Source: a virus. From it: a stretch of 64,000 nt of DNA. Below, piece after piece: positions 13,105-62,160 of this stretch (positions are counted from its first letter, which is position 1; each line of letters begins with the position of its first letter). The stretch lies in the IMG/VR virus record IMGVR_UViG_3300026290_000001, one strand, 5' to 3'. The position numbers and the translations under genes were made by a program. The notes below the pieces were generated by a model. The model was given only the letters and a program-made list of their open reading frames with translations. It searched no databases and was not told where the DNA came from.

Positions 13105-14397
13105 TCAGTCATGAGATGAATTGGCTCTGTTCTGTTCATATATAATCCATGATTTTCTTGCATTAATTCTTTGCATGTTAGATATTTTCGGTGTCTTCAT
13201 ACCTCTGGGTGCATTACTAAAATCTATTTTTTCACCATCTATACCCATAAGAATGGCATAACCCGTAGACATTCTACCTTTAATAAAATATTCATTACCT
13301 ATATACCTTACTTTATCAAACTTCCTAAATCCTTCTATTTTACCTGTAGGTATCTTCTGATGACTTCTTACTCCTTTTGCCTGTTGGTAATCGCCTTTAG
13401 GGATACACTTTTTTAATACAGCTTTTTCAGTTTTAAAGCTTACATCAATTAACCCTATATCTTCAATATTATTTAAACAGGCAATAGCTACAGCATCGTA
13501 GTAATGCTCTTTTGGTAATCCCATTAGCTGTCTATGTTCTTTGGTAATAAATCCAAAGGTTTCTTTTGCATTTGGTAGCTGTCTTAATAATTGTTGTCTT
13601 ATACTATTCATCTGTGTTGTGTGTTTTAATTGTCCTTTAATTTTACCATTCTTCTTTAATTTAATTCCTCCTTTGTGCAAACTATTATGACAAGTTTTAC
13701 AAAGTGTAATTAAATTTTCTGCATCATCTGAGCCACCATTTTTTCTAAAAACTATATGATGTACCTCTAATCTGCTGTCTTTACTTTTTCCTTTGCAATA
13801 CTGGCAAATATATTTATCTCTACTTAATACATAAGCTTTAGTATTAGCAAATCCATAATTAGTTCCTTTTTGATAAAGCCATTTATTACTTAATACTGCT
13901 GGATTTTTTAAAGCATGTGGGTCAAATGTTGCTGTTTCTATTATTATATTTGTAATGGGCATTATTGATTTTGCAAAATCAATTTCTTTTAAGTGTGAAT
14001 TAATTTTACTTGTCATTGTAGGAGAAAATCTATCTTTTTTAATGCTGTTTTTCCTATTATTAAATCTAGGTTCCCTATATCTAGTTTTCCTATTCCTTCT
14101 AGTTCTCCTATATTTAGCTCTTTTGTCCATTTTGTCAGATATATCATTTCTAATTTCTACTTCTGATATATAATACACTTCATTTTCGTCATTTGCTACT
14201 GCACTTCCTATTTTACTACTACCAGTATCAATTCCTAAAGTTAAATCTTGTGTATAGTCTGTAGCATGATATAGTAATTTAATTGTAAATGGAGTTCTTC
14301 TTATGCATTTTGCTTTACCATCTTTTAACAATAATCTTGCTATTGCTGGTTTACAAGGCATTAAAGGACTCCCATCTTCATTAATTACATAAACCAT
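13105..14397 (-). CDS. iscB: IscB, OMEGA-family RNA-guided nuclease (PLMP domain, split RuvC, HNH)
   Basis: N-terminus VYVINEDGSPLMPCKPAIARLLLKDGKAKCIRRTPFTIKL (PLMP domain); RuvC-I LGIDTGSSKIGSAV; Arg-rich bridge helix RRTRRNRKTRYREPRFNNRK; RuvC-II ETATFD; HNH CQYCKGKS...LEVHHIVFRKNGGSDDAENLITLCKTCHNSLH; RuvC-III HYYDAVAIA; domain order exactly as in described IscB proteins. Confidence 0.85.
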   Translation of the reverse strand: MVYVINEDGSPLMPCKPAIARLLLKDGKAKCIRRTPFTIKLLYHATDYTQDLTLGIDTGSSKIGSAVANDENEVYYISEVEIRNDISDKMDKRAKYRRTRRNRKTRYREPRFNNRKNSIKKDRFSPTMTSKINSHLKEIDFAKSIMPITNIIIETATFDPHALKNPAVLSNKWLYQKGTNYGFANTKAYVLSRDKYICQYCKGKSKDSRLEVHHIVFRKNGGSDDAENLITLCKTCHNSLHKGGIKLKKNGKIKGQLKHTTQMNSIRQQLLRQLPNAKETFGFITKEHRQLMGLPKEHYYDAVAIACLNNIEDIGLIDVSFKTEKAVLKKCIPKGDYQQAKGVRSHQKIPTGKIEGFRKFDKVRYIGNEYFIKGRMSTGYAILMGIDGEKIDFSNAPRGMKTPKISNMQRINARKSWIIYEQNRANSSHD

Positions 14398-14681
14398 AAA
14401 ATCAAATCCTTTCGGATAAATACTCTGCTTAAAAGCAGGTTATGCGTATCTATATACTATTACCATATATAGAATTCGTCCTCATCTCGACAATGATAAA
14501 ATAGCTTATATGTATATCACACCGAGCCTTACCCTCCAACTCTACTTAGTGATATACGATAGAGCAATGGTCTGATGCGTCAACCAAAGGTATCATAACT
14601 ATTCTATCGTAGTATAAATTTCTCTATACTAAGTCTGGTGAACTTAGACTTTAGAAGCCTCCGACTTTAGTCGGGGGTAGT
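14398..14681 (-). ncRNA. candidate omega RNA of IscB (structured 5' region; guide expected at the high-coordinate end)
   Basis: 284-bp non-coding gap directly upstream of iscB with higher GC than surroundings and several stems readable by eye (CCTCCGACT/AGTCGGGGG, TACGATAGAG/CTATTCTATCGTA, AGTCT..AGACT, CTGCTT..AAGCAG). Confidence 0.45.
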
Positions 14682-14927
14682 TCACTCTATTTCAGGATTG
14701 ATAGATAAATCATCTTTGCTTGTACTATTTACATTAGATAAATTATCTTCATTGGACAAATCATCATTAATAATTTGACTTAATTCGTCTATTTTAGAAC
14801 TTAATTTGATAATCTCTATCTGATACATATTATTTTGTAAACATAAAGTGACTACATCTAAGGGCAAATTACTATTGTTTATTAACTCTGCCAGTTTAAT
14901 ATTAAAATCACTTATAATAAAAATCAC
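14682..14927 (-). CDS. hypothetical protein
   Basis: 81-aa ORF upstream of IscB locus. Confidence 0.25.
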   Translation of the reverse strand: MIFIISDFNIKLAELINNSNLPLDVVTLCLQNNMYQIEIIKLSSKIDELSQIINDDLSNEDNLSNVNSTSKDDLSINPEIE

Positions 14928-16262: not shown

Positions 16263-16391
16263 AAAATCACCTAAATTTCTTTATAATTGAATAAATTATT
16301 TAAAAAAGAATAATAATAATTAATAAGCAAAATAGTTAAATAGTATTGTAAAAAATTAGATAATATGATAGTATAAATATATATTATTAAA

Positions 16392-16991
16392 ATGAAAGGA
16401 TGTATAATAATGAAAATTAAAAACTTATCTTATCTGTTTATTGGTTTGCTAGTTGGGTGTTTATTTCCCATTCAATCTTTATTTGCCGAACAACCTATTA
16501 CATTAATTATCAATGGTAAAACAATTACTAATGCTTCACCACAAATAGTTTCAGATAGAACGTATGTACCTTTGAGGGTAATATCCGAAGAATTAGGTGC
16601 AACAGTTGAATGGGACGGAGTAAATAGGGTAGTTAGGGTTAATAGTGGGGATGGACAAAAAATTGAAAAGATTAATCAAAATCAAACTCAAAACAATAAT
16701 GATAATAGTAATGTGGAGAGCAACCCTAGAGATAATATCAATTATATTAGTAGTGATGATATGGAAAAATATTACGAAAGAGATACAAATAAAGGTTTTG
16801 TAAAAAATCGTTGGGTAGATGGTAAATATTTTATTGACTATGATAGAAAAATTACACGTTTTGAAGATTATGAATATTATTATGATAGAGAAAGAGATAT
16901 ATTTTATTGGGCAGATTATAAGGCAATTTTAATCTTTGGAGAAACAATAAAAGATTATCCTAAATATAAATTTAACCAAATACAGCAGTAG
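16392..16991 (+). CDS. secreted lipoprotein with copper-amine-oxidase-N-terminal-like domain (moron, opposite strand); true start probably 16410
   Basis: Signal peptide with lipobox LLVGC; motif DRTYVPLRVISEELGATVEWDGVNRVVRV typical of Cu_amine_oxidN1 domains of Firmicutes; only plus-strand gene within minus-strand tail operon. Confidence 0.55.
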   Translation: MKGCIIMKIKNLSYLFIGLLVGCLFPIQSLFAEQPITLIINGKTITNASPQIVSDRTYVPLRVISEELGATVEWDGVNRVVRVNSGDGQKIEKINQNQTQNNNDNSNVESNPRDNINYISSDDMEKYYERDTNKGFVKNRWVDGKYFIDYDRKITRFEDYEYYYDRERDIFYWADYKAILIFGETIKDYPKYKFNQIQQ

Positions 16992-28201: not shown

Positions 28202-28263
28202 TTCCTTATGTTCTATATAATAAAATAGGGCAAGGGATAGATAAAAACATCTACCACTTACCC

Positions 28264-28776
28264 TTACACAACATCTATACCTCTAGTTTTTAAAGCACTT
28301 TTCATCGTTTGAACATGTAACCCTTTACTTCCAATTTCTTCTCGTGTATTCTTAATAAATGGTCTTGGTTTGCTCCAAGGATCATTCCCATATCCAAATT
28401 CTATATTATGTGCCAAACTTTCACCTAAATCAACACCACCATATCCACCATGATTGTATGCAAATGAATGATTAAAATCGGCATTATCAACAACTTCAAG
28501 TACTCCATCTTCAATTAAATGAGAATTCATTTGTCCTGTATCCCCAAGACCGAGTGAACCTTCAATAAAACCTCTACGTTTATACATAACTGGATTAGGA
28601 TATTTATCATAAACATCTGTTTTTACATGATCTGAAATTTTATCTTTAACCATTTCAGACATTTCTTTTTGAAGTGAAGAATTAACTTGTTGTGTAATAT
28701 ACTGCTCAAGTTGTTTTAAACTACTAAAGCTTTTACCCAATTTCCTCACCTTCACTTTGATTGCCATTTGCAACAT
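28264..28776 (-). CDS. hypothetical protein (head-tail region)
   Basis: 170-aa ORF in structural operon. Confidence 0.3.
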   Translation of the reverse strand: MLQMAIKVKVRKLGKSFSSLKQLEQYITQQVNSSLQKEMSEMVKDKISDHVKTDVYDKYPNPVMYKRRGFIEGSLGLGDTGQMNSHLIEDGVLEVVDNADFNHSFAYNHGGYGGVDLGESLAHNIEFGYGNDPWSKPRPFIKNTREEIGSKGLHVQTMKSALKTRGIDVV

Positions 28777-29371
28777 TCCACATATCCTTCAACATAGGTA
28801 ATTTATCCCAATCTAATTTATTTATATCTTTTACTAAACTTTTACTGAGACTTTTTATTTGCTTATCTGTGGGGAGTTTTTCAACCACTTTATCTAATTT
28901 ACTTGCCAATATTCCCTCAATACTATTATTTAACTTTATAATCTGAGTAAGTTCACAATCCACCAAATCCAATATAAATTCAACTTCAGTTATTGGTATT
29001 TGATTTAAAATCCTTTCTATCCCCACATTCTCACAAAGATAATCATAATCTTCAATAAGATTTTCTGAGAACTCGATATTAGTGTAATTCACCAATAATG
29101 AAACATCACTGGTTAATTTTTTATAAAAGTAATCTATTTTGCTTAAACCATTAATTTCATCTAAGACAATACAACTATCTATAATTTTATTTACTATTAA
29201 ATTTTTTTCTATAATGGATAAATACTGTTTAACTTCAAGCAGATCATCTACGAATTTACCTGCTTCAATTTGTTCTTTTATTTCTTGAACTAACATATTA
29301 AATACCTCCAATATATTTATTTTAATAATATATAAAAATCTCTGTGCGAGGCCACTCTTTGTCATAGCCAC
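28733..29371 (-). CDS. hypothetical protein
   Basis: 212-aa ORF in structural operon. Confidence 0.3.
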   Translation of the reverse strand: MAMTKSGLAQRFLYIIKINILEVFNMLVQEIKEQIEAGKFVDDLLEVKQYLSIIEKNLIVNKIIDSCIVLDEINGLSKIDYFYKKLTSDVSLLVNYTNIEFSENLIEDYDYLCENVGIERILNQIPITEVEFILDLVDCELTQIIKLNNSIEGILASKLDKVVEKLPTDKQIKSLSKSLVKDINKLDWDKLPMLKDMWNVANGNQSEGEEIG

Positions 29372-29768
29372 ATTTCAAAGTTAAACTTGTTAAATGTAAA
29401 GAATCATCATCAATTATTAATCCTGATTCAGCAATACCGTCTAAAATAAATTTAGGGACAGTATTGTCACAATCTTTACGGATTTTGGTTTTGAAGTAAC
29501 TAACAAATGTCATTTCACACTGTTCTATTTTTTTATTTGTAAGTTTGTTTTCTTCTACAAACCAGATTATGAAATCTTTCCATTTTTGTTTTAAATCATT
29601 CATTTGAGGACGTTTCATTATCATCCATTTATTGATAGATGGATGAGTAGGTTTATCAATAGGAATTTTTTTACGTTTTGGATATTTAGCAAAATAATAT
29701 TTATTGTATTTTTCTAAAACATTATTATCTATAATTAGTTTTATTTCTGAAATAATAAATTCCTCCAA
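29322..29768 (-). CDS. hypothetical protein
   Basis: 148-aa ORF in structural operon. Confidence 0.3.
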   Translation of the reverse strand: MEEFIISEIKLIIDNNVLEKYNKYYFAKYPKRKKIPIDKPTHPSINKWMIMKRPQMNDLKQKWKDFIIWFVEENKLTNKKIEQCEMTFVSYFKTKIRKDCDNTVPKFILDGIAESGLIIDDDSLHLTSLTLKCGYDKEWPRTEIFIYY

Positions 29769-29830
29769 ACAAAAAGAGAGATTATTTATAATTTCTAACC
29801 CCTCTTTATATATTAATTTATATTGTTGTT

Positions 29831-30793
29831 TTAAAACACCACATAACTCACACCACTACCAACAATTGCATCTTCACTACCACCAGCAAACGGTACTGGT
29901 TCACTTAAAATATCTAATGGGAAACCTGCTTGATAAGTACCAACCACAAATAATGCTGCTAATTCAGGGGTATTATTAATTATACTTTCTACATTACCTG
30001 GCATTATCTGGTCTGGATCGCCATCAACATTAGTAGGAGAAGTAATTGTTAATAAATTATTAGCAAAACCAACAGTCCCTTGTTGACTTATTCCCGTACC
30101 AGCAACTAATATCACCGAATAATCATTTCCACTTACACCTGCTGTTTTACAATTAATTACCATAGAACCACCTGTTGAACCTGTTACAGTTACACTTGCT
30201 GGAATGGCAAGTTGAGTATCAGCAAATCCTATAGTATCACCAATGGAAGATGTTATTGTTCTTATATATTCAGTGTTATCTACACTGAATTTTATTGTTT
30301 TTGTGTTAAGCGAATCTAATTCAAAATTTTTAGTTGAATCTATTAATGTTGAAGTTGTTCCTATAGAAGTAGATGTACCATGAAGAAGTGCAGTTTGAAT
30401 GGGAGTAGTTATGGTTGCGTTTAGATTAGTAGGGATATTGGTTATTAAACTTGCTCCTACATCAACTACACGACCTGTAATTTTTAATGTTCCTCCACTA
30501 ACGGCAGATACTCGACATCTTACTCCTGCAAAATGTGCTAAATCTATGACGAAAACCTGATTGGCATTACCTGTGACAGATGTAGCAATTGTTAATTCTG
30601 GTAATTTAACAGCAGGAATAGGAAACCAATTAGGTGTAGATGAACCATCACAACCTTCAAAATGTACAGTATAATTAGCCGAACTAATAATATAAACCGC
30701 CATTTGATTGTTTCTACCTGTTTTAAAAGTTACTCCATTACCTGTAGTTGTTACATTATCTTGGAAAATCCAAGAGTTTGTTTGTACGTTCAT
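29831..30793 (-). CDS. putative major tail structural protein
   Basis: 320 aa, Thr/Gly/Ser-rich beta-type composition; preceded by strong RBS AAGGAGG and an unusual CA-rich leader. Confidence 0.35.
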   Translation of the reverse strand: MNVQTNSWIFQDNVTTTGNGVTFKTGRNNQMAVYIISSANYTVHFEGCDGSSTPNWFPIPAVKLPELTIATSVTGNANQVFVIDLAHFAGVRCRVSAVSGGTLKITGRVVDVGASLITNIPTNLNATITTPIQTALLHGTSTSIGTTSTLIDSTKNFELDSLNTKTIKFSVDNTEYIRTITSSIGDTIGFADTQLAIPASVTVTGSTGGSMVINCKTAGVSGNDYSVILVAGTGISQQGTVGFANNLLTITSPTNVDGDPDQIMPGNVESIINNTPELAALFVVGTYQAGFPLDILSEPVPFAGGSEDAIVGSGVSYVVF

Positions 30794-30960
30794 TTTATTT
30801 GCCTCCTTTTGATTTATGGATTTATGTTGTTTTGAGTGGTTGGTTGATTGATTGGTTAGTTAGTTGGTTGATTTGATTGGTTGAATGATAGTTGATTTGA
30901 TTTGATTTGATTGTTATTTGAGTGATAGTTGAAAGGTTAATAAAATAGGGTAGATACTGT
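30794..30960 (-). promoter_or_regulatory. CA-rich, G-free 5' leader with CAA/CAAT repeats upstream of 29831-30793
   Basis: Plus strand contains essentially only G/T/A (minus strand transcript C/A/U only) with tandem (CAA/CAAAT)n-like repeats. Confidence 0.4.
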
Positions 30961-30982
30961 AGGAATGTATCTACCCATGTGA

Positions 30983-31273
30983 TTATTTTTGTGGAATAAT
31001 TTTGTCAAATGTTTTCATTGTTTCTTTTATTGTTTCTTTTACCATTTCCTTTTCTTCTGAAAAATCTACATCAACCCAATCGCAATTTTGGGGAGAAAAA
31101 AGCATTTGAATATACCAGATATCCGAGTCTTTAACATGTTCCATATAATTACCATCTGTAAAATAAAAACCTTTTTTATCTTTACCTATGGTGTAGATTC
31201 TATCCATATAAAGACCAGGGGGTGGGGCGGCAGGACAAGTATAAGTTAATTTAACTTCATTGTATTTCATCAT
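30983..31273 (-). CDS. hypothetical protein
   Basis: 96-aa ORF; followed downstream by hairpin GGGTAGATAC..GTATCTACCC plus T-run. Confidence 0.3.
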   Translation of the reverse strand: MMKYNEVKLTYTCPAAPPPGLYMDRIYTIGKDKKGFYFTDGNYMEHVKDSDIWYIQMLFSPQNCDWVDVDFSEEKEMVKETIKETMKTFDKIIPQK

Positions 31274-31339: not shown

Positions 31340-32095
31340 TTAAACTTCTACATAATGCATCATATCACCAGTTGAATCAGCGAGAATATCCCATTCAATC
31401 GATAATCTTGCTACGTTATCTGCGTCCATAGTAAGAGATACATTAGATTTTGGCTTAACATTTAATAATTGATACTGTACAAATGTATCAACCTGATTTG
31501 TTCCACGAACAGCACTATCAGCATAAATAGTATAACCACCAGGGAAACTTACATTATCAACGGTAAATGTATTATGAGTTCCTTCTAACATATAATAACA
31601 TACTACTTTTCCTGCGGTTGAAAATGTAGTCGGATTAAAAGTTAAGGCTTTATCTGTTATAGAATACTTATCTTCAGCACTTGCTGGAGTTCCTGCTGTT
31701 TGTTCAGCGTCATGGGTAATACCATCACTATTTAATTTAAAAATAACTAGACTACCAGCTTTGGGAAGTTCAGTTAATGATGCACCTCCACCACCGGCTT
31801 GAACATTTAAAACTTCACGTTTTGCTACAGGCATAGTTTTATTAGACATAGTTGTTCCGAAGAGCAAAGATAACCATTTAAGTTCAAAAACTTCCATCTC
31901 TGTCTTAAATGTACCCTCTCTCTGTTTATCCCATCTAATAGCTTTTGTAGTCTTATTGTAAGCATAAACGGAATCAGCAGTAAAATCTATTGAACTTGTT
32001 TTGGCGTAATCAGCATAAAGAACTGGTTTTAATCCACCACCAGCAACTTGTTCATATACATGAAGATTGGCCGCATCTTTAATACCATATAGCAT
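31340..32095 (-). CDS. putative tail structural protein
   Basis: 251 aa, beta-rich composition, position in tail morphogenesis block. Confidence 0.3.
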   Translation of the reverse strand: MLYGIKDAANLHVYEQVAGGGLKPVLYADYAKTSSIDFTADSVYAYNKTTKAIRWDKQREGTFKTEMEVFELKWLSLLFGTTMSNKTMPVAKREVLNVQAGGGGASLTELPKAGSLVIFKLNSDGITHDAEQTAGTPASAEDKYSITDKALTFNPTTFSTAGKVVCYYMLEGTHNTFTVDNVSFPGGYTIYADSAVRGTNQVDTFVQYQLLNVKPKSNVSLTMDADNVARLSIEWDILADSTGDMMHYVEV

Positions 32096-36802: not shown

Positions 36803-37801
36803 TTAGTCAGATATTTGATATCTGCCATAAAGGTCAGTAATTACAATACCAGTACCGTACCGAGTAGCTGCAAAGTAATCTTGGGTCAAATCTTGGTTGG
36901 CAAGTGCATCACCACTGATAATTCTCATTTCACCTTCGGTTACAAATTTTACAGGTTTTGCATCAACGGATACTATATAAAGATCACTTTCAGAAAGTTT
37001 GAAATTATATGTACCAACGGTGTGAACCTGTTTGATTCTCATCATAGGAGTACCATTAAAGTTACCATAATAACCCATTTTGTACATATCATCTTTTGCA
37101 GCATCAGCTATAATAGCAGTAGTTACTTTCCGTAGTGCTTTTCTAGTTCCTGCAATCATGGCAGATTTGCCAGTGGCGGCTTCAACGTGTTCAATTACAT
37201 CAAGTAAATCTTCTTCATCAAAAGAACCATTGTCGGTGAATCCAGCAGGTAAACCAGAGAAAGCACCAGTGAAAGCGGTGTAAATATCATCGTTAATTTT
37301 CAGTTTGAAAGCCTTATCTAATGCTTCAAGCATTTCGTTAAAGTCTACACGTCCGGCGAGTAAACGAGAAAGATGTTCGTATATTTTGATGCCTTTCCAA
37401 GAGGTGGTGATAGAAACATTAGTTCCAACATCTAAACGCTGTCTACGTAGAGATTGAGTTCCATCGGCAATTTCTGAAATTACCAACATGGTGCGGTCTG
37501 GCGCATAGAAACTATTCTGATCACCAAGGGCAAGGTTCTTATATTCCACAAAATTTTCAAAGAAATTATCATCAGGAAGTCCTTCAAGGACAGTGTTTTG
37601 AAGAATCTCTTCTAATATTTCAAACATTGCTACGCCATTTCTACGGAATGATTTATAATCCAATTTGGTAGAACCACCATTGAGTTCTATAAAATGTTGG
37701 CGCAATGCCTCTGTTGCATCGGATTTACTAAATTTATCATGTGAAAATTTATTTTTATAAATATCTTTCGCTAATTTTACCAAAGTTTTATTATCTTCCA
37801 T
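36803..37801 (-). CDS. putative major capsid protein
   Basis: 332 aa, position downstream of portal/protease block, strong RBS, followed by strong terminator. Confidence 0.45.
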   Translation of the reverse strand: MEDNKTLVKLAKDIYKNKFSHDKFSKSDATEALRQHFIELNGGSTKLDYKSFRRNGVAMFEILEEILQNTVLEGLPDDNFFENFVEYKNLALGDQNSFYAPDRTMLVISEIADGTQSLRRQRLDVGTNVSITTSWKGIKIYEHLSRLLAGRVDFNEMLEALDKAFKLKINDDIYTAFTGAFSGLPAGFTDNGSFDEEDLLDVIEHVEAATGKSAMIAGTRKALRKVTTAIIADAAKDDMYKMGYYGNFNGTPMMRIKQVHTVGTYNFKLSESDLYIVSVDAKPVKFVTEGEMRIISGDALANQDLTQDYFAATRYGTGIVITDLYGRYQISD

Positions 37802-38385: not shown

Positions 38386-39366
38386 TTAAATTTTTAGTTC
38401 ATTTTTTAAAATTTCCTCAATATTATCAAATTCCCAATAGGGAATACGAAGCAAAATTATATTATGCTTTTTACAATATTCATTTTTTAGTTCATCATGA
38501 ATTTGTAAAGTTTCAAACTCCTTCTTGGTCATCATACCTTTAACCCATTCATAATGTTGTTTCCCGTCATATTCAATCAACATTCTTAATTGGGTTTTTT
38601 CTTTGTCCCAAAATACAGGAACATCAAATTTAAGTAAACCTCCTCCAACGCCCTTTAAATCATCAAAAGTATATTGGGTGTGATGTGGAATATCATATTT
38701 TGTAAGTAAAATATCTAATTGTTTCTCTCCTTTAGATTCTGCACACTGGGAACAACCTCTATTATTGCAACTTCTACTGAATATTTTTGCTTTCCATTCA
38801 TACCCACATTCTAAACATTTCCACCAAGCGTACTTATTACAACCATAAGTTATATCATAGGGAGTTAAATCGCCATTTTTGGTAGGATGCCACTCTAAGG
38901 TTAGGTCTGGTCTTTTAGTAGCGAGACAGTTTGATAATGTTACTTGCGCCCCTACGCAAACACCACATCCATTACCACTATAAATACCACTCCAATCAGC
39001 TAGAAAAATTTCTCCACAATCTTCTTTTAAACATCTCCATTGCATTTTAGTTTTTGCATTGCTATAATTTGTACTTATTAACTCAAAAGGTTTATTATTT
39101 AATACACACCAATTTTTCATATTTTGAATTGTGTATGGATTAGAAACATCAAATTTCATTGGATTGCTTCTTAAAAATACCGATATACTTTGAAAATAAT
39201 AATAACTATCCATATCTTTAAATGTTAATTTTGAAAGCGCATTCTTATATTTCAAATCAATCAAAATATAACCTTTTGCTAATAAAGTTTCCTTCACTAA
39301 CTCATAAGTCCATTTAGTACCACTTGTATAACCCATAAATTCCTCCTCATCCTTGTTTACAAACAA
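38386..39366 (-). CDS. homing-endonuclease-like protein: zinc-ribbon repeats plus DUF559/Vsr-like PD-(D/E)xK-type domain
   Basis: Repeated W..P..N......W.C..CG.EW zinc-ribbon motifs and C-terminal ...LRMLIEYDGKQHYEWV...LLRIPYWE motif characteristic of endonuclease-domain (DUF559-like) proteins; inserted inside head gene block. Confidence 0.5.
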   Translation of the reverse strand: MFVNKDEEEFMGYTSGTKWTYELVKETLLAKGYILIDLKYKNALSKLTFKDMDSYYYFQSISVFLRSNPMKFDVSNPYTIQNMKNWCVLNNKPFELISTNYSNAKTKMQWRCLKEDCGEIFLADWSGIYSGNGCGVCVGAQVTLSNCLATKRPDLTLEWHPTKNGDLTPYDITYGCNKYAWWKCLECGYEWKAKIFSRSCNNRGCSQCAESKGEKQLDILLTKYDIPHHTQYTFDDLKGVGGGLLKFDVPVFWDKEKTQLRMLIEYDGKQHYEWVKGMMTKKEFETLQIHDELKNEYCKKHNIILLRIPYWEFDNIEEILKNELKI

Positions 39367-47255: not shown

Positions 47256-47331
47256 TGGAGCCGAGTATAGGATTTGAACCCATAATCTGTTGTTTACAAG
47301 ACAACTGCCTTATCAATTTGGCTAACCCGGC
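47256..47331 (-). tRNA. tRNA-Thr (anticodon UGU), CCA encoded
   Basis: Minus-strand 76 nt: acceptor GCCGGGU/ACUCGGC, anticodon stem GUUGU/ACAAC with loop CUUGUAA, T-arm AUGGG-UUCAAAU-CCUAU, discriminator U + CCA. Confidence 0.75.
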
Positions 47332-48380: not shown

Positions 48381-49202
48381 TTAAGGATTTTCTATTACTT
48401 TAGCAGGTCTATATTTATCTTTATAATTATGCCATGCTTTTCTCTGCCATTCTAATTGTTTTTCCCTCCAACAACTCCTACAAAATTTTCTTCTATTAGA
48501 TGTTGCTTTTATTAATTTTCCACATTCATTACAATTAATAATTTTTGGATTACCATTATACAAATCAAAGTAATATCCAATATTATCAAAGGTAGTTATT
48601 TCAAAAACTACTATTCCATTTTCCTTGATATTATTCATAAATATAAGATGAATTTTCCCCTTCATTCTAACATCAACCAATCCTAAAATCTCTAATTCAT
48701 TAATTATGGCATTTATTTTATACTCATTATTAGATATTTTAGACACTTCTAATATCTCATTATATGTATTTTGATTACCACTTATATAATTATATTTTAA
48801 AACATTTCCGTATTTTAATTTATGTATTTCTTTATATATCTTCATTTCTACTAACAAAACAAACAGAATTTTTTTATAATTATACTCTATATCTAAATTA
48901 TTAATGTATTCAATTTCTTCGTTTGTTATAGGAATACTATCAATAATTATTAAAGGGTTATCTTTTCTACCTCCTTTTTTGAGTGCAGTATTAATTTGTT
49001 TGAAATATAAAACATCATTGAAATTAACTATATACTTCTTGCAAAATTCATATAATTTTTCTTTTCGTTGTTTAGGTTTTATGCCAAGTTTTTTCCAATA
49101 TTTAACTAACAAAACCAATTCATAATTATGACGTTCAGTTAAAAATCCATGTTGTTCAATTTGTTTTGCATATTCTTCTTCATTGTATTTTTCTTGAATC
49201 AA
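48381..49202 (-). CDS. hypothetical protein with C-terminal zinc ribbon
   Basis: 273 aa; C-terminal CNECGK...CRSC motif; translationally coupled to upstream 934-aa gene. Confidence 0.3.
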   Translation of the reverse strand: MIQEKYNEEEYAKQIEQHGFLTERHNYELVLLVKYWKKLGIKPKQRKEKLYEFCKKYIVNFNDVLYFKQINTALKKGGRKDNPLIIIDSIPITNEEIEYINNLDIEYNYKKILFVLLVEMKIYKEIHKLKYGNVLKYNYISGNQNTYNEILEVSKISNNEYKINAIINELEILGLVDVRMKGKIHLIFMNNIKENGIVVFEITTFDNIGYYFDLYNGNPKIINCNECGKLIKATSNRRKFCRSCWREKQLEWQRKAWHNYKDKYRPAKVIENP

Positions 49203-52003
49203 ATAATCACTTCTTCCAACTTGTACTTTTTATTCAAGTAAACAATACCCCCTTCTTTATTAGGCATGGGAAAAAATATAGATTCTTTTGTGTTTGATTT
49301 AATATTTGAAAAAATATACTTACCAAAGGAATTCCATAAAATATCTTTGTTTGAACTTTTATATTCACAATAAAATATTTCAACTAAATAATTAGTTAAT
49401 TCATATGCGTATGAACATATTTCAAACATTCTACTTTTAAAGTCATCATAAATATTATTTACAATACGATCAGATTCTTCATCAAATTGCTCTTTGTTGG
49501 CATTTTGATTAATACCCATAGTATTCAAGTCTTTTAATTCTTTCATAAATTTTTTATACTCATTTAATACTTTCTGATAGGTTTCTTGATTTTTAGGAAT
49601 ATCATTTTTCATATATAATTTATACAAATCACCTATTTTACTTGTTTTTAATTTACTTTTAATATCAAAATCAACATTTTCAATATGTTTACACAATAAA
49701 TTCATTACACTGTCACTATCAATTACTGGTAAAAATCTATAATATGCATCCACAAAAGACTGTTCTTTTTCATTACAATTTTCCTTAATTAATAGTTCAT
49801 TTAATGTTAATCCAAATTTTTGCTGACTAGACAAATCGTTACTTTTGACATATTTTTTATATTTATTATAGGTATTTTTATAAAGATGAATAAAAAAATA
49901 TGGATGTTTATCCAATAATATTTTATTTAAAAATTCCTTTTCTTTTTTAACTTTTTCATCATCATCTTTATAAATTTTTTGCCTTTCAATCCAAATCTTA
50001 GGAATGCCCTTAACTTTTTTACCTATTTTTGCTTTATCAATTTGAGCAGATTGAAGTTTCGTACACATTTTTAATCTATTTATCAATGTTTGATATTCCA
50101 AACTTTCTTTATTAAAAAGAGGGAGTAAGGCATAAGCACTTGTACTTTTATTTGTTATAGAGCCTATAGTGGAACCAAAGGCGAAAAGATCAGCTTTATA
50201 TAAATCTTCTTCTGTAAATACCATAGATATAGATTTAGGTGCATCATAAACCACTGGCAACTCATCTTGAAATATTGAATTTAATATTGTTTGATCAGAA
50301 GTAGTTGCAATAATATCAAAATCCCAATCACTTCCAGCCCAATTAAGAGTTTCATAACCATGTATATTTACTATTACTCCACCATCATCACAATACTTAT
50401 ACCATTTATTTAATTTATCATGATTAATTAAATTTAATTTCAAATGTTCTGATTTATAAGTAAGTGGTGCTCTCATTGAATCTACGATACAAACATTTTT
50501 TTTATTCCAATAATTACAATAATACTCTTTTTCTTTAAGCAATCCAGTAACCTTTTGCCCGCAAATATGTTGCATCATAGCATAGGGATCACTTACTAAA
50601 ACCTGAAAATTTCCATCTAAAATAATTTCACCAAGACAACCTCTTTTTATGATATTGTTAGTATATTTATAAACTTTATCTCTGATATATTTATCATTTT
50701 TTAATTCATGATTAACTATCAAACTTTTTAACCAATAATTATTACTATACTTTAAAAAATATTGAATACTTTCTTGAGTTATATTTTCTCCTAATAAAAA
50801 TAATAACGTATAATATATATTATCAAAATTGACCCCAGTAACCCAATCAACAAAAGGAGTACAAATCTTCTTAATATCTTTTTGGTTTAAATCCAAAGTC
50901 TGTAAAAATTGATAATTCATTTTTAATATATCATTAGGTTTTTTAGGAGAAGTTAAACTAACACCCCATTTTAAATCATTCATCTCGCAATTATGTATAT
51001 ATTCTTCTAAACTACCAAACGCATTCCAAAGTTTAAATTGACTTTCCGATACAACCACATCGATATCCCTTAAATCAACCTGTATTGGATTATTATTGTC
51101 TTTGTATATAGTATTTATTATATAATTACCATGATTTTCATTTTCACAATATTCATCTATATCAAATACGCAGAGCATCCCTTTCAGAAAATTCTGCCTG
51201 ACACAAAATTGACCAGGAATATAATCTAATCCTAATTCTTCTGCCCATTCTTTAGCTTTACTTGGTTTAATCAACCCTTGACCATCAAACCTATTAAAAC
51301 TCAACTCTACTTCTTTAATTACAATATCATCATCTTTATTTTCTTCTGTTTCAGTTACAAAATTAACATTAACTTTTTGCTTAATTTCATAATCAGGCAC
51401 TACACAAAATTTAGGCGTACTTACTATTTTTGTAGATGAACCCGACAATCCTTTATATGCATTGTATTTAGAAGGGCATAGGGGTATATTTTTATCTCTA
51501 TTATTATCTAAAATTTCATTAAGTTGATTTAAAATTTTCTCGTTGCAAAATACCACTGTTGAAACTCTGGATTGACTGGCAGATGATGATAATCTAAAAT
51601 ACCGTTCAGAATTTAATAATAATCCATTTTTAAATAAATAATTATAATGTGAGTTATGTTCCATTACTATAGTTATGTACTCAGGAATAAAAAGCATATC
51701 TAAAATATTATTTTGTAATTCTATTATTCTACTTGAGTTTTCCTTTGAATATATTTGTTTTTTTAACCTATCTCTTTCTTTATACCATTGTTCAAGTTGT
51801 ATATAATTAATTTCTTTACCAGTTATTTTTCTAATACTTCTAAGAATTTGATTGTCTGATAAAGCAATTAACTCACCATTTTGTTTAGCTTGTTGTGGAG
51901 TTAATTGTATATCATACCCATATTCTTTAAGCCTAGATGATTTAAATTTCATAGTATATAATTGTCTATTTATCAATATTTTTTGCCTCCAATAAATCTT
52001 CAT
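49199..52003 (-). CDS. large hypothetical protein (replication/recombination module candidate)
   Basis: 934-aa ORF overlapping both neighbours (operon); no unambiguous catalytic motif recognised by eye. Confidence 0.4.
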   Translation of the reverse strand: MKIYWRQKILINRQLYTMKFKSSRLKEYGYDIQLTPQQAKQNGELIALSDNQILRSIRKITGKEINYIQLEQWYKERDRLKKQIYSKENSSRIIELQNNILDMLFIPEYITIVMEHNSHYNYLFKNGLLLNSERYFRLSSSASQSRVSTVVFCNEKILNQLNEILDNNRDKNIPLCPSKYNAYKGLSGSSTKIVSTPKFCVVPDYEIKQKVNVNFVTETEENKDDDIVIKEVELSFNRFDGQGLIKPSKAKEWAEELGLDYIPGQFCVRQNFLKGMLCVFDIDEYCENENHGNYIINTIYKDNNNPIQVDLRDIDVVVSESQFKLWNAFGSLEEYIHNCEMNDLKWGVSLTSPKKPNDILKMNYQFLQTLDLNQKDIKKICTPFVDWVTGVNFDNIYYTLLFLLGENITQESIQYFLKYSNNYWLKSLIVNHELKNDKYIRDKVYKYTNNIIKRGCLGEIILDGNFQVLVSDPYAMMQHICGQKVTGLLKEKEYYCNYWNKKNVCIVDSMRAPLTYKSEHLKLNLINHDKLNKWYKYCDDGGVIVNIHGYETLNWAGSDWDFDIIATTSDQTILNSIFQDELPVVYDAPKSISMVFTEEDLYKADLFAFGSTIGSITNKSTSAYALLPLFNKESLEYQTLINRLKMCTKLQSAQIDKAKIGKKVKGIPKIWIERQKIYKDDDEKVKKEKEFLNKILLDKHPYFFIHLYKNTYNKYKKYVKSNDLSSQQKFGLTLNELLIKENCNEKEQSFVDAYYRFLPVIDSDSVMNLLCKHIENVDFDIKSKLKTSKIGDLYKLYMKNDIPKNQETYQKVLNEYKKFMKELKDLNTMGINQNANKEQFDEESDRIVNNIYDDFKSRMFEICSYAYELTNYLVEIFYCEYKSSNKDILWNSFGKYIFSNIKSNTKESIFFPMPNKEGGIVYLNKKYKLEEVII

Positions 52004-61060: not shown

Positions 61061-61444
61061 TTACATCTTCCTTTCTTAAATTTTGCTCCAATCATTATCA
61101 TAATGTTTATATCCTTGTGGTTTATTTAGTAATGCTTCTTTTATAGTTGCATGTTCAGAGATAATTTTTCACTTTCAGTTTCCTATACATAACCGTTTTC
61201 ATTGATGATAAAGTTATACCAAGGTACTAATAATGCTATTGGCATTGCAACTCTCCTTAATATCATTTCCATTCATTAACATCTCCTTTATGATTTGATC
61301 TATATGGATTGTTTGAATTTCTGGAGTAAGGATTTGTGTGGGTGAACCACCATTGTTGAATGTAGAAAGAAAAATAGGATATCGTTTCTTGTGGATTAAT
61401 ACCTATCCAGTCTAGAAAAAACATTGTAGGTAAACCTCCTTTCT

Positions 61445-62160
61445 ATGTGGAAATGTGTGTAGAAATATATATGGAATTTATATAGTTAAATGTGTTATTT
61501 GATTGATTAATAATATGATTTATTTTTAGATTTTAGAAATGGTAAGTTGTGGATTGTAGGATGGGTTATAAATATGTTTTTAAAGCAAATTTAATTATTT
61601 AGTTTATTTGTAGTCGGGAAGGTATGTGGAACAGGAAGGAATAATTGAGCAGAAAGTAGAATGAATATTGATATATTGGGAGTTTAGATAGTTTTTAGGC
61701 ATGAATTTTGTGTTAATTTTGATTATTGGAAGATTGATACAGAAGGTTGATTTTTTGTTGTCGGGGAAATTGAGATGAAGTGGTGAATTTTTAGGGTGGT
61801 TTTTTATTGAGTTTATAAAGGAATTTGAGTGTAGAAATGGTGATTAGGTGGGAGGTAAGGGGTAAGGGTAGGGAGAGAGGAAATAGGGTGGTTTTAGAGT
61901 GGATTTTGTTGGAGTTTTGTTATAAAGATTGTGGGATTTTTGTTTTTGGGAGTGGGAGGATATTGGGAGAATGTAGATGGGATGGATGTAGGTGAGATGG
62001 ATGGTTTGACGAGTGAGAGACGATGTGAATTTTGGTGGTTTTAGGGATATTTTATGTTGTCGGTATGGAATTTTTGTTTATGTGTGGAATAGATGTGATA
62101 GCGAACATATGTTCGATTAAAGTGACCGGAAATTTGTAAACTGGGGGTGGTATGGGTAGG
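61445..62160. other. C-depleted (G/T/A-only on plus strand) non-coding region with G-tract repeats; canonical G-quadruplex motif at 61850-61873
   Basis: Very few cytosines across about 700 nt on plus strand; motif GGG-aggtaa-GGGG-taa-GGG-ta-GGG; no ORFs. Confidence 0.5.

Follow-up and report, generated by a model that had tools for sequence, protein, structure and literature searches.

A G-free leader upstream of a XepA/YomS-like gene is maintained in a clade of metagenomic phages

Background

The omega leader of tobacco mosaic virus has no internal G residues, is unstructured and rich in CAA repeats, and has been reported to enhance translation even in bacteria. It is the 5' leader of a eukaryotic plus-strand RNA virus, spans about 68 nt, and lacks a Shine-Dalgarno (SD) sequence. 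This work deals with a segment of comparable composition found in a phage genome (IMG/VR virus record IMGVR_UViG_3300026290_000001; the 64,000-nt stretch analysed is hereafter called the window), in which 150 nt devoid of G in the mRNA sense lead from a terminator-like hairpin to the ribosome binding site (RBS) of a gene encoding a protein of the XepA/YomS family. The likeness between omega and the phage leader is compositional only, as the two share no sequence homology and depend on different host machineries.

Closer relationships, in terms of function, may be sought among elements described in Escherichia coli and its phages. Unstructured tails made of CA or AU repeats raise translation in E. 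coli when located upstream of the RBS (PMC5934652), and ACA or CA-rich elements at the same place act alike (PMC3879156, PMC6690012). The tisB standby site couples a structured element on the 5' side, as found also in the phage leader, to a single-stranded stretch (PMC5934652, PMC3879156, PMC6690012). CA- or AU-rich tails, ACA enhancers and standby sites (MS2 coat, tisB, GcvB targets) all feature a single-stranded A/C-rich stretch directly 5' of the RBS, as is the case here; no specific sequence is required in this class, which matches the conservation of the leader in composition only. Unlike these elements, which span 12-40 nt, the leader is 139-150 nt long, is wholly devoid of G, and precedes a strong, accessible SD. 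It is probably internal to an operon instead of being placed at an mRNA 5' end, and the host is probably a Firmicute, a group in which S1-dependent standby is not established. In its presumed mode of action the leader comes closest to standby sites and to enhancers that are unstructured or CA-rich, yet is not a demonstrated member of any of these classes.

Two additional types of elements share features with the locus. Rho-loading (rut) sites are C-rich, G-poor, unstructured and untranslated RNA segments longer than 78 nt, carrying spaced YC dimers, and the leader conforms to this description; unlike the leader, they usually contain some G, and do not extend as far as an SD. Intrinsic terminators and Gram-positive mRNA stabilisers, which combine a 5' stem-loop and a strong RBS (the aprE leader, the cryIIIA STAB-SD, the SP82 stabiliser), resemble the locus in the presence of a GC-rich hairpin with a U-rich tail after a gene. 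If the mRNA is processed, hairpin, strong SD and 3' hairpin would make up the classic architecture of a protected mRNA. Unlike terminators and stabilisers, the locus features an interrupted U-tract, a 9-nt loop, longer than typical, and a long G-free spacer, which is foreign to both.

Similar gene neighbourhoods occur in known phages, but are not accompanied by similar spacers. The yomT-yomS junction of Bacillus phage SPbeta carries an ordinary 60-nt spacer containing G, and at the junction between the tube gene and the next gene of Clostridium phage c-st an amidase is found, preceded by a 50-nt spacer. Occurrence of the G-free leader is limited to one clade of metagenomic origin (digester, fermentation and wastewater samples).

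The G-free leader

The sequences making up the leader are the following.

30807-30956, minus strand: G-free run in the mRNA sense, 150 nt (48% A, 28% C, 24% T)
30809-30947, minus strand: leader proper, from the end of the hairpin to the SD, 139 nt (A 68, C 38, G 0, T 33; 49/27/24% A/C/U)
30832-30921, minus strand: degenerate short tandem repeats (Tandem Repeats Finder, k-mer counts)
30802-30808, minus strand: SD AAGGAGG, preceded by the conserved AUAAAUCAAA; an 8-nt spacer leads to the ATG at 30793-30791

The G-free run begins at the second base of the 3' arm of the hairpin, stops one base inside the SD, and is the second-longest C-free run on the plus strand of the window. A reading of the sequence alone had placed here an upstream region of about 165 nt without G; the absence of G holds and is far beyond chance, but the run measures exactly 150 nt. 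The strong RBS AAGGAGG that had been proposed is indeed found at 30808-30802, with 8 nt between it and the ATG. G-free runs of 150 nt or more are expected 1.6e-8 times given the composition of the whole window, and 2e-7 times given the composition and the amount of intergenic DNA of the phage, though these figures overstate the case, since the leader is repetitive and its positions are not independent. Comparative data carry more weight, because repeats inflate run statistics. Within the genome, the approximately 30 other gaps between genes on the same strand contain 7-25% G and 0-19% C, and intergenic regions of similar or greater length 11-18% G. The leader gap contains 26% C and 5% G, all confined to the hairpin and the SD, and is a compositional outlier among the 30-odd intergenic gaps of the phage. 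Two other long C-free runs of the plus strand do not resemble the leader. One, at 1903-2044 (142 nt), overlaps the 3' end of a plus-strand open reading frame (ORF; 1445-2002) and is there C-free in the mRNA sense; the other, at 16329-16423 (95 nt), lies within a divergent AT-rich intergenic region.

The lack of G has direct consequences. Since no G is present, the leader contains no G-C or G-U pairs, no AUG, GUG or UUG starts, and no SD-like sequence. Pairing is limited to A-U, and the mean unpaired probability predicted over positions -150 to -20 is 0.90. ATG, GTG and TTG are all missing, and stop codons occur in all three frames. A search of the leader with the Rfam 15 covariance models gave no match at the gathering threshold, permissive settings returning a snoRNA at chance level (E 7.5). 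A scan of the minus strand of the leader for sigma-70-like promoters found none; promoter-like matches on the plus strand correspond to background (21 found, 18 expected).

The CAA-type repeats noticed by the sequence-only reading are real, though degenerate. Tandem repeats cover about 90 of the 150 nt, with periods of 4 (NCAA, 11.5 copies) and 5 (AATCA/TCAAA, 5.8 copies), and super-period variants of 12 and 29 nt; CAA occurs 19 times, and AATCA 9 times. The extreme repetitiveness in CAA and AATCA is probably the result of slippage expansion of an already G-free sequence. The extreme lack of G might also be largely that of neutral low-complexity DNA, an AT-rich spacer between a terminator and the next gene expanded by slippage of G-free units (AATCA, NCAA) and serving for spacing only. 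We deem this unlikely. Tandem repeats of four periods spread over much of the run are in its favour, but the first (5') 45 nt of the leader are both non-repetitive and G-free, and the comparably long or longer intergenic regions mentioned above keep their G residues. In addition, no slippage instability is visible, the leader being identical in those contigs of the same phage, from three different samples, that were listed; variation in repeat number was rejected on this ground.

Relatives of the locus

The homologous proteins found are 32, all of them metagenomic (digester, fermentation, wastewater). GenBank phages yielded no relatives when searched with the locus, either as DNA (2.5 kb) or as protein, and none were found in a species-representative genome collection. 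Loci were recovered for about 15 distinct lineages, denoted by L numbers. They share one architecture, in which a tube gene, at times followed by a small ORF, precedes hairpin, U-rich tail, G-poor spacer, AAUAAAUCAAAGGAGG, and gene.

The hairpin, the G-poor spacer and the AAUAAAUCAAAGGAGG end recur in ten metagenomic lineages, while the sequence in the middle changes. From the end of the hairpin to the SD, where about 14% G is expected, G residues are 0/139 in the window, 0/104 in L007, 1/152 in L003, 1/149 in L010, 1/135 in L016, 1/140 in L025, 1/123 in L028, and 3/136 in L034. The repetitive CAA/AATCA middle is peculiar to the window phage, relatives being different there. In the middle of the spacer it is composition, not sequence, that is conserved, and the recurrence of a G-poor spacer with a changing middle argues for selection on composition. 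Among variable columns of the leader, G is found in 1/45, compared with 13/78 variable third-codon positions of the adjoining gene, a difference which is alignment-dependent and suggestive only, as the window row aligns poorly. Conservation of sequence is found at the 3' end. Next to the SD, a stretch of 15-20 nt (AAUAAAUCAAAGGAGG) has hardly changed among lineages whose proteins are just 50-80% identical, and the core AAUAAAUCAA(A)GGAGG is nearly invariant in about 15 relatives. The element of G depletion is thus real, statistically striking and evolutionarily maintained.

These comparisons bear on the neutral hypothesis as well. In its favour, the repetitive middle is unique to one phage, the spacers of L011 and L008 are merely AT-rich and modestly depleted of G, and the gene can exist with an upstream region of 30 nt. 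In contrast, leaders that are not repetitive (L003, L010, L016, L025, L028, L034) are almost free of G over 120-150 nt, and a spacer of about 150-230 nt has been retained across lineages in an otherwise tightly packed genome.

In some relatives the leader has been replaced. A DUF4379 homing-endonuclease gene is located immediately upstream of the XepA-like gene in L004-L006 and L013, at the place of the G-free leader; lineages hosting DUF4379 or IS605-type insertions have lost most of the spacer, but kept the SD-proximal element. A homologous DUF4379/HNH homing-endonuclease gene is found in the window too, in the region of the head genes (38386-39366, minus strand). Genes encoding IscB-like (RRXRR+HNH) proteins, Y1 transposases and TnpB reside near the XepA locus in L004 and L032.

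A feature of some relatives deserves mention. The single G of the leaders of L003, L010, L016, L025 and L028 belongs to a conserved ATG, which opens a 14-codon mini-ORF (MLSNKIINQNNINQ) ending at a TAA just before the SD. The mini-ORF is not preceded by an SD, and is absent in the window phage.

Hairpins and tails

The leader is delimited at the 5' side by a stem-loop, and related structures lie further downstream.

30983-31273, minus strand: upstream 96-aa ORF (phrog_32178, E 4e-7), with a TAA stop at 30983-30985, 6 nt before the hairpin
30948-30976, minus strand: terminator-like hairpin, perfect 10-bp stem GGGTAGATAC/GTATCTACCC, 9-nt loop, -15.5 kcal/mol
30939-30947, minus strand: U-rich tail UAUUUUAUU, directly 3' of the hairpin; the tract reads TATTTTATT
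29769-29811, minus strand: second terminator-like hairpin, just 3' of the XepA-like gene, -12.3 kcal/mol, then the U run UUUUUGU
28215-28264, minus strand: sister terminator-like hairpin after the YomN-like gene, -21.3 kcal/mol, related arms GGTAGAT/ATCTA..CCC

An ORF equal in size to the 96-aa ORF follows the tube gene in Clostridium phage c-st. The hairpin found next to it has arms at 30976-30967 (GGGTAGATAC) and 30957-30948 (GTATCTACCC), and is unique in the window, none being expected by chance; it was missed by the terminator scan only because its 9-nt loop exceeds the 8-nt limit of the scan. Hairpin and T-run had been recognized at the 3' side of the preceding gene by inspection of the sequence alone, and both stand, apart from coordinates that were one base off.

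As expected for an intrinsic terminator, a stable, GC-containing stem-loop (10 bp, -15.5 kcal/mol) lies just past a gene, and the structure has been kept in evolution, though on the basis of few independent events. The outer stem GGGTAGA/TCTACCC is found in L003, L008, L011, L016, L028 and L034, with four different loops, and in L007 and L025 two compensatory changes of pairs gave rise to GAGTAGACAC/GTGTCTACTC. Conservation of the stem and compensatory changes support a structural role for the hairpin. The tail is less regular. The U-tract UAUUUUAUU has 7/9 U and is interrupted; longer T runs are found in L008, L011, L014 and L034, and L003 has UAUUACCUU instead.

The XepA-like gene is bracketed by hairpins on both sides. 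The leader hairpin and the 28215-28264 hairpin look like one duplicated terminator module, and are both followed, the latter with its stem-loop at 28227-28264, by the identical 13-mer CCCTATTTTATTA. The possibility that CCCTATTTTA is a phage promoter motif was discarded, since the sequence also ends another terminator-like hairpin, and matches throughout the window are at chance level. Pairing of the post-hairpin CCUUU or U-run with the SD region was discarded as well: folding of the window sequence predicts a weak long-range CCUUU:AAAGG interaction, which relatives do not share.

The downstream gene and the phage

29831-30793, minus strand: XepA/YomS-family gene, 320 aa, with a YomS-like N-terminal domain and an unassigned C-terminal part of about 200 aa
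49199-52003, minus strand: homologue of the single-chain RNA polymerases of the YonO family, 934 aa (phrog_8308), with a DWDFD motif at residue 559

The gene following the leader had been taken for a putative major structural gene, an assignment that does not hold. A profile built on 18 homologues matches at residues 6-110 the PDB entries 6i56 (XepA, E 5e-7) and 6i5o (YomS, E 3e-6), the match covering the YomS protein and the C-terminal (pentamer) domain of XepA, and homologues carry the precomputed Pfam family PF27453 XepA. The protein itself found no match in local copies of Pfam and PHROGs, and its AlphaFold model (pLDDT 51) is too poor for a fold search. Gene order points in the same direction. 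The succession of YomX/W/V/U (tube), small ORF, XepA-like, YomN and YomM integrase-like genes is found in the window, in relatives and in SPbeta, and the XepA-like gene occupies the yomS position of the SPbeta tail module. Profile, family and position identify the product as a member of the XepA/YomS family rather than a major structural protein. XepA of PBSX is an exported, cytotoxic late protein, absent from particles, and YomS adjoins the tail cassette (PMC6834076). Ordinary spacers of 66-70 nt precede both the gene that probably encodes the capsid protein (36803-37801) and that of the tail tube (31340-32095), and therefore the most abundant proteins are not, as a rule, served by such a leader.

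The gene located just 3' of the XepA-like gene (29322-29768, minus strand) encodes nuclease/resolvase-type proteins of a family which varies by lineage, being RusA-like in the window and L003, RecU in L004, DUF1064 in L007 and L026, and RuvC in L025 and L028. It seems that unrelated genes have replaced one another here while the position stayed fixed (non-orthologous replacement).

The window has a G+C content of 28.7%, and features one minus-strand cluster of genes extending leftward for 59 kb, from about 61.4 kb to about 2.5 kb. Encoded proteins include terminase, portal, a probable capsid protein, a tail-tube protein (phrog_2729, 41% identical to CST157 of c-st), YomX/W/V-like, YomN-like and YomG-like proteins, an integrase-family protein in the YomM position, and a 2014-aa tape measure. 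In tblastn searches, the 49199-52003 protein matched SPbeta-like phages, a protein of Bacillus phage BUCT082 (54.6% identity), and sequences bearing the annotation 'RNA-dependent RNA polymerase'. This gene marks the phage as SPbeta-like in its transcription strategy. Late genes of SPbeta form one transcript made by YonO (PMC5467207, PMC8270828). By analogy, the "leader" would most likely lie within a long late transcript, as a spacer, and not make up the 5' end of an mRNA of its own. Strong SD sequences are in use in the phage, whose relatives have Clostridia and Bacilli as hosts. A search for host or prophage sequences with a conserved 18-mer gave no viral matches and 33 genome matches, at chance level, and a protein-based genome scan found no relative of the locus.

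Other elements of the window are a tRNA gene (47259-47331, minus strand; Rfam RF00005, 65 bits), located between the YonO-like region and the packaging genes, and a HEARO RNA (14475-14685, minus strand; Rfam RF02033, 121.7 bits), found beside a 430-aa ORF (13105-14397, minus strand). HEARO RNA and adjoining ORF suggest that an IscB/IS200-605-type element inserted in the phage.

Possible roles of the leader

The hypothesis that we tentatively favour, being well aware that it may prove wrong, is that the leader is an unstructured region free of start codons, on which ribosomes land (standby) or translation is enhanced. In the late mRNA of this SPbeta-like phage, the leader would be a spacer that is not translated, set between the hairpin closing the tail-tube unit, which may be terminator-like or stabilising, and the strong RBS of the XepA-like gene. 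A long single strand without decoy sites, extending right up to AAGGAGG, would keep the RBS clear of the neighbouring hairpin and of other mRNA structures, and provide small ribosomal subunits with a standby or enhancer platform. The XepA-like protein could then be translated efficiently, and independently of the upstream cistron. Transcription of the region within the late operon, and its effect on translation, are both inferred. The lack of sigma-70-like promoters on the minus strand, the single late transcript of SPbeta, and the occurrence of a YonO homologue are consistent with read-through transcription of the spacer. A probable location inside a long late operon, whereby the "leader" may be an intercistronic spacer, had not been considered by the sequence-only reading, which had proposed a CA-rich translational enhancer acting via S1. 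The idea of an enhancer is plausible. Predicted to be about 90% unpaired, the leader fits the general class of unstructured or CA-rich enhancers and standby sites (PMC5934652, PMC3879156). The S1 step is doubtful, because of the strong SDs of the phage and the Clostridia- and Bacilli-infecting relatives.

The single-stranded region expected directly 5' of the RBS at a standby site is predicted here (0.90 unpaired), but several observations weigh against such a role. The RBS is not sequestered: the segment from SD to AUG is predicted to be 0.82 unpaired without the leader, and 0.61 with it. As the RBS would be open without the leader, a standby site would have no structure to contend with. No such leader precedes the capsid and tube genes, SPbeta and c-st lack an equivalent spacer, and relatives with an inserted DUF4379 gene keep only 30 nt before the gene. 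G depletion is weak in L008 (9/153), L011, L014 and L017. S1 is not known to play in Clostridia- or Bacilli-type hosts the role it has in E. coli; the enhancer mechanisms known from E. coli are S1-dependent, and probably do not apply in a Firmicutes-type host. Finally, lack of structure accounts for the avoidance of G, not for a two- to three-fold enrichment of C.

The enrichment of C points to a different role, the main alternative, which we regard as somewhat unlikely. Untranslated, unstructured, C-rich and G-free RNA, coming after a stop codon and a leaky intrinsic terminator, could be a Rho-loading (rut-like) site, either backing up the hairpin, or attenuating transcription by the host RNA polymerase into the XepA-like and the downstream tail genes; a YonO-type polymerase might ignore the site. 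Along with the G-poor 716-nt region at the head of the cluster (see below), it would shield late genes from host transcription. In the survey of Nadiras et al., every tested template with a C>G bubble >78 bp or an area >700 terminated in a Rho-dependent manner in vitro, and known Rho terminators carry at least a (YC N9-13)x4 motif (PMC6144790). In the leader, the C>G bubble in the mRNA sense covers 231 positions of the window, with an area of 4353 %xbp and a maximum C-G of 33%, and 26 YC dimers are present, which form both (YC N9-13)x4 and x6 motifs. The sequence traits of rut sites are found (bubble >78 nt and area >700 %xbp on the non-template strand, at least 4 YC dimers spaced 9-13 nt apart, RNA that is untranslated and, by prediction, unstructured), and the leader has the composition of a rut site, a feature that adds to what had been read from the sequence alone. 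No sense-strand bubble inside the 59-kb leftward cluster is stronger, a larger one being found at the start of the cluster. C amounts to about 20-27% in the leaders of most relatives, compared with about 10% in intergenic DNA, and the mere lack of structure is no explanation for this; the spacer of L011, which is short, is C-poor (about 8% C, 5/59 nt; 0/59 G). A back-up terminator is plausible, since the U-tract of the hairpin is interrupted and L003 has none, and cytotoxicity, as reported for PBSX XepA (PMC6834076), would be a motive for tight insulation. Yet, the composition criteria have been derived for the Rho of E. coli and Salmonella, and may not be those of the host. A polar terminator located before essential tail genes, as the tape measure lies downstream, would demand a mechanism of escape, perhaps provided by the YonO-type polymerase. 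Moreover, a G-free run reaching the SD and a conserved SD-proximal part, A-rich and C-poor, are left unexplained by Rho.

The larger bubble is the following.

61445-62160, minus strand: comparator non-coding region, 716 nt, 16 G (2.2%), 31% C, ending at the SD GAAAGGAGG

This is the largest C>G bubble in the window, and the sole other strongly G-depleted non-coding region. It contains G-free runs of 247 and 142 nt, and, like the XepA leader, ends at a strong SD, which serves a 53-aa ORF (61263-61424) at the head of the leftward cluster. The parallel in composition that had been noticed early is borne out, as G is 2.2% and C 31% in the same sense. As both G-poor regions end at strong SDs, the avoidance of G is tied to the mRNA sense and to RBSs. 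The complement of the region (plus strand, about 61855-61895) features clusters of GGG tracts, such as GGGTAAGGGTAGGGAGAGAGGAAATAGGG, G-quadruplex-like by eye, and motifs similar to those of the region (CCACCCT/CCCTATTTC) are found in the XepA leader of L034.

According to a more daring hypothesis, which is highly doubtful, the leader and the 716-nt region are both Rho-entry "insulators", halting the host RNA polymerase and ignored by a minimal YonO-type polymerase. If true, expression of the tail genes further downstream, and of a XepA-like protein that is potentially toxic, would have to wait for synthesis of the phage polymerase, and the two regions would represent a terminator system able to tell one polymerase from another, of a kind not described for phages infecting Gram-positive bacteria.

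It is similarly improbable that the locus functions as a specific binding array or promoter. In this case CCAACCAATCAA, AATCAA and the post-hairpin CCC(CC)TATTTTA..TTTC would be sites for RNA- or DNA-binding factors of phage or host, such as a CCAAT binder of the cold-shock type, a small RNA whose seed is GU-rich, or the phage polymerase acting at a promoter. A motif of the CCAACCAA(T/A)CAA type recurs in relatives, at times 5' of the hairpin (L025, L028, L003), CCC(CC)TAT(T)TTA-N-TTTC is found in every lineage, both where it overlaps the hairpin arm and where it does not, and the bracketing of the gene by hairpins is reminiscent of an independent unit. However, the enrichment of CAA in relatives is not conserved beyond what is expected from composition, and CCCTATTTTATTA, which ends another terminator-like hairpin too, may simply be a terminator tail. 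No convincing complementary partner was found within the window: the best candidates for a trans-acting RNA, two 15-mers, both lie inside coding regions, and such an RNA encoded in the window was rejected. As to promoters, the minus strand of the leader has none of the sigma-70 type. A promoter-like site located in antisense orientation (30647-30675, plus strand) is not conserved, its -10 box being changed in relatives, and an antisense RNA was discarded on this ground. Similarly, the idea that a G-free leader is a signature of YonO-type promoters was abandoned, since the known YonO-promoter leader of SPbeta is not G-free, the 1.5-kb non-coding region upstream of yonK containing 15-27% G. The MT366948.1 segment 48642-50180 (L036 4643-6181) has a balanced composition, with 15-27% G, unlike the G-poor regions of the phage.

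Conclusions

If mostly a product of repeat expansion, the leader is a compositional curiosity only. Whether it enhances translation or loads Rho, it would provide a compact natural part of 139 nt for the design of expression systems in Clostridia or Bacilli. As a Rho loader, it would show how transcription of a 59-kb gene cluster is shared out between the host and a phage endowed with a minimal RNA polymerase of its own. As a translation enhancer, it would represent in bacteriophages, and in a natural form, what G-free, CAA-rich leaders are in plant viruses and synthetic constructs, working in an SD-dependent, probably Gram-positive host, where mechanisms of the S1 type are not expected.

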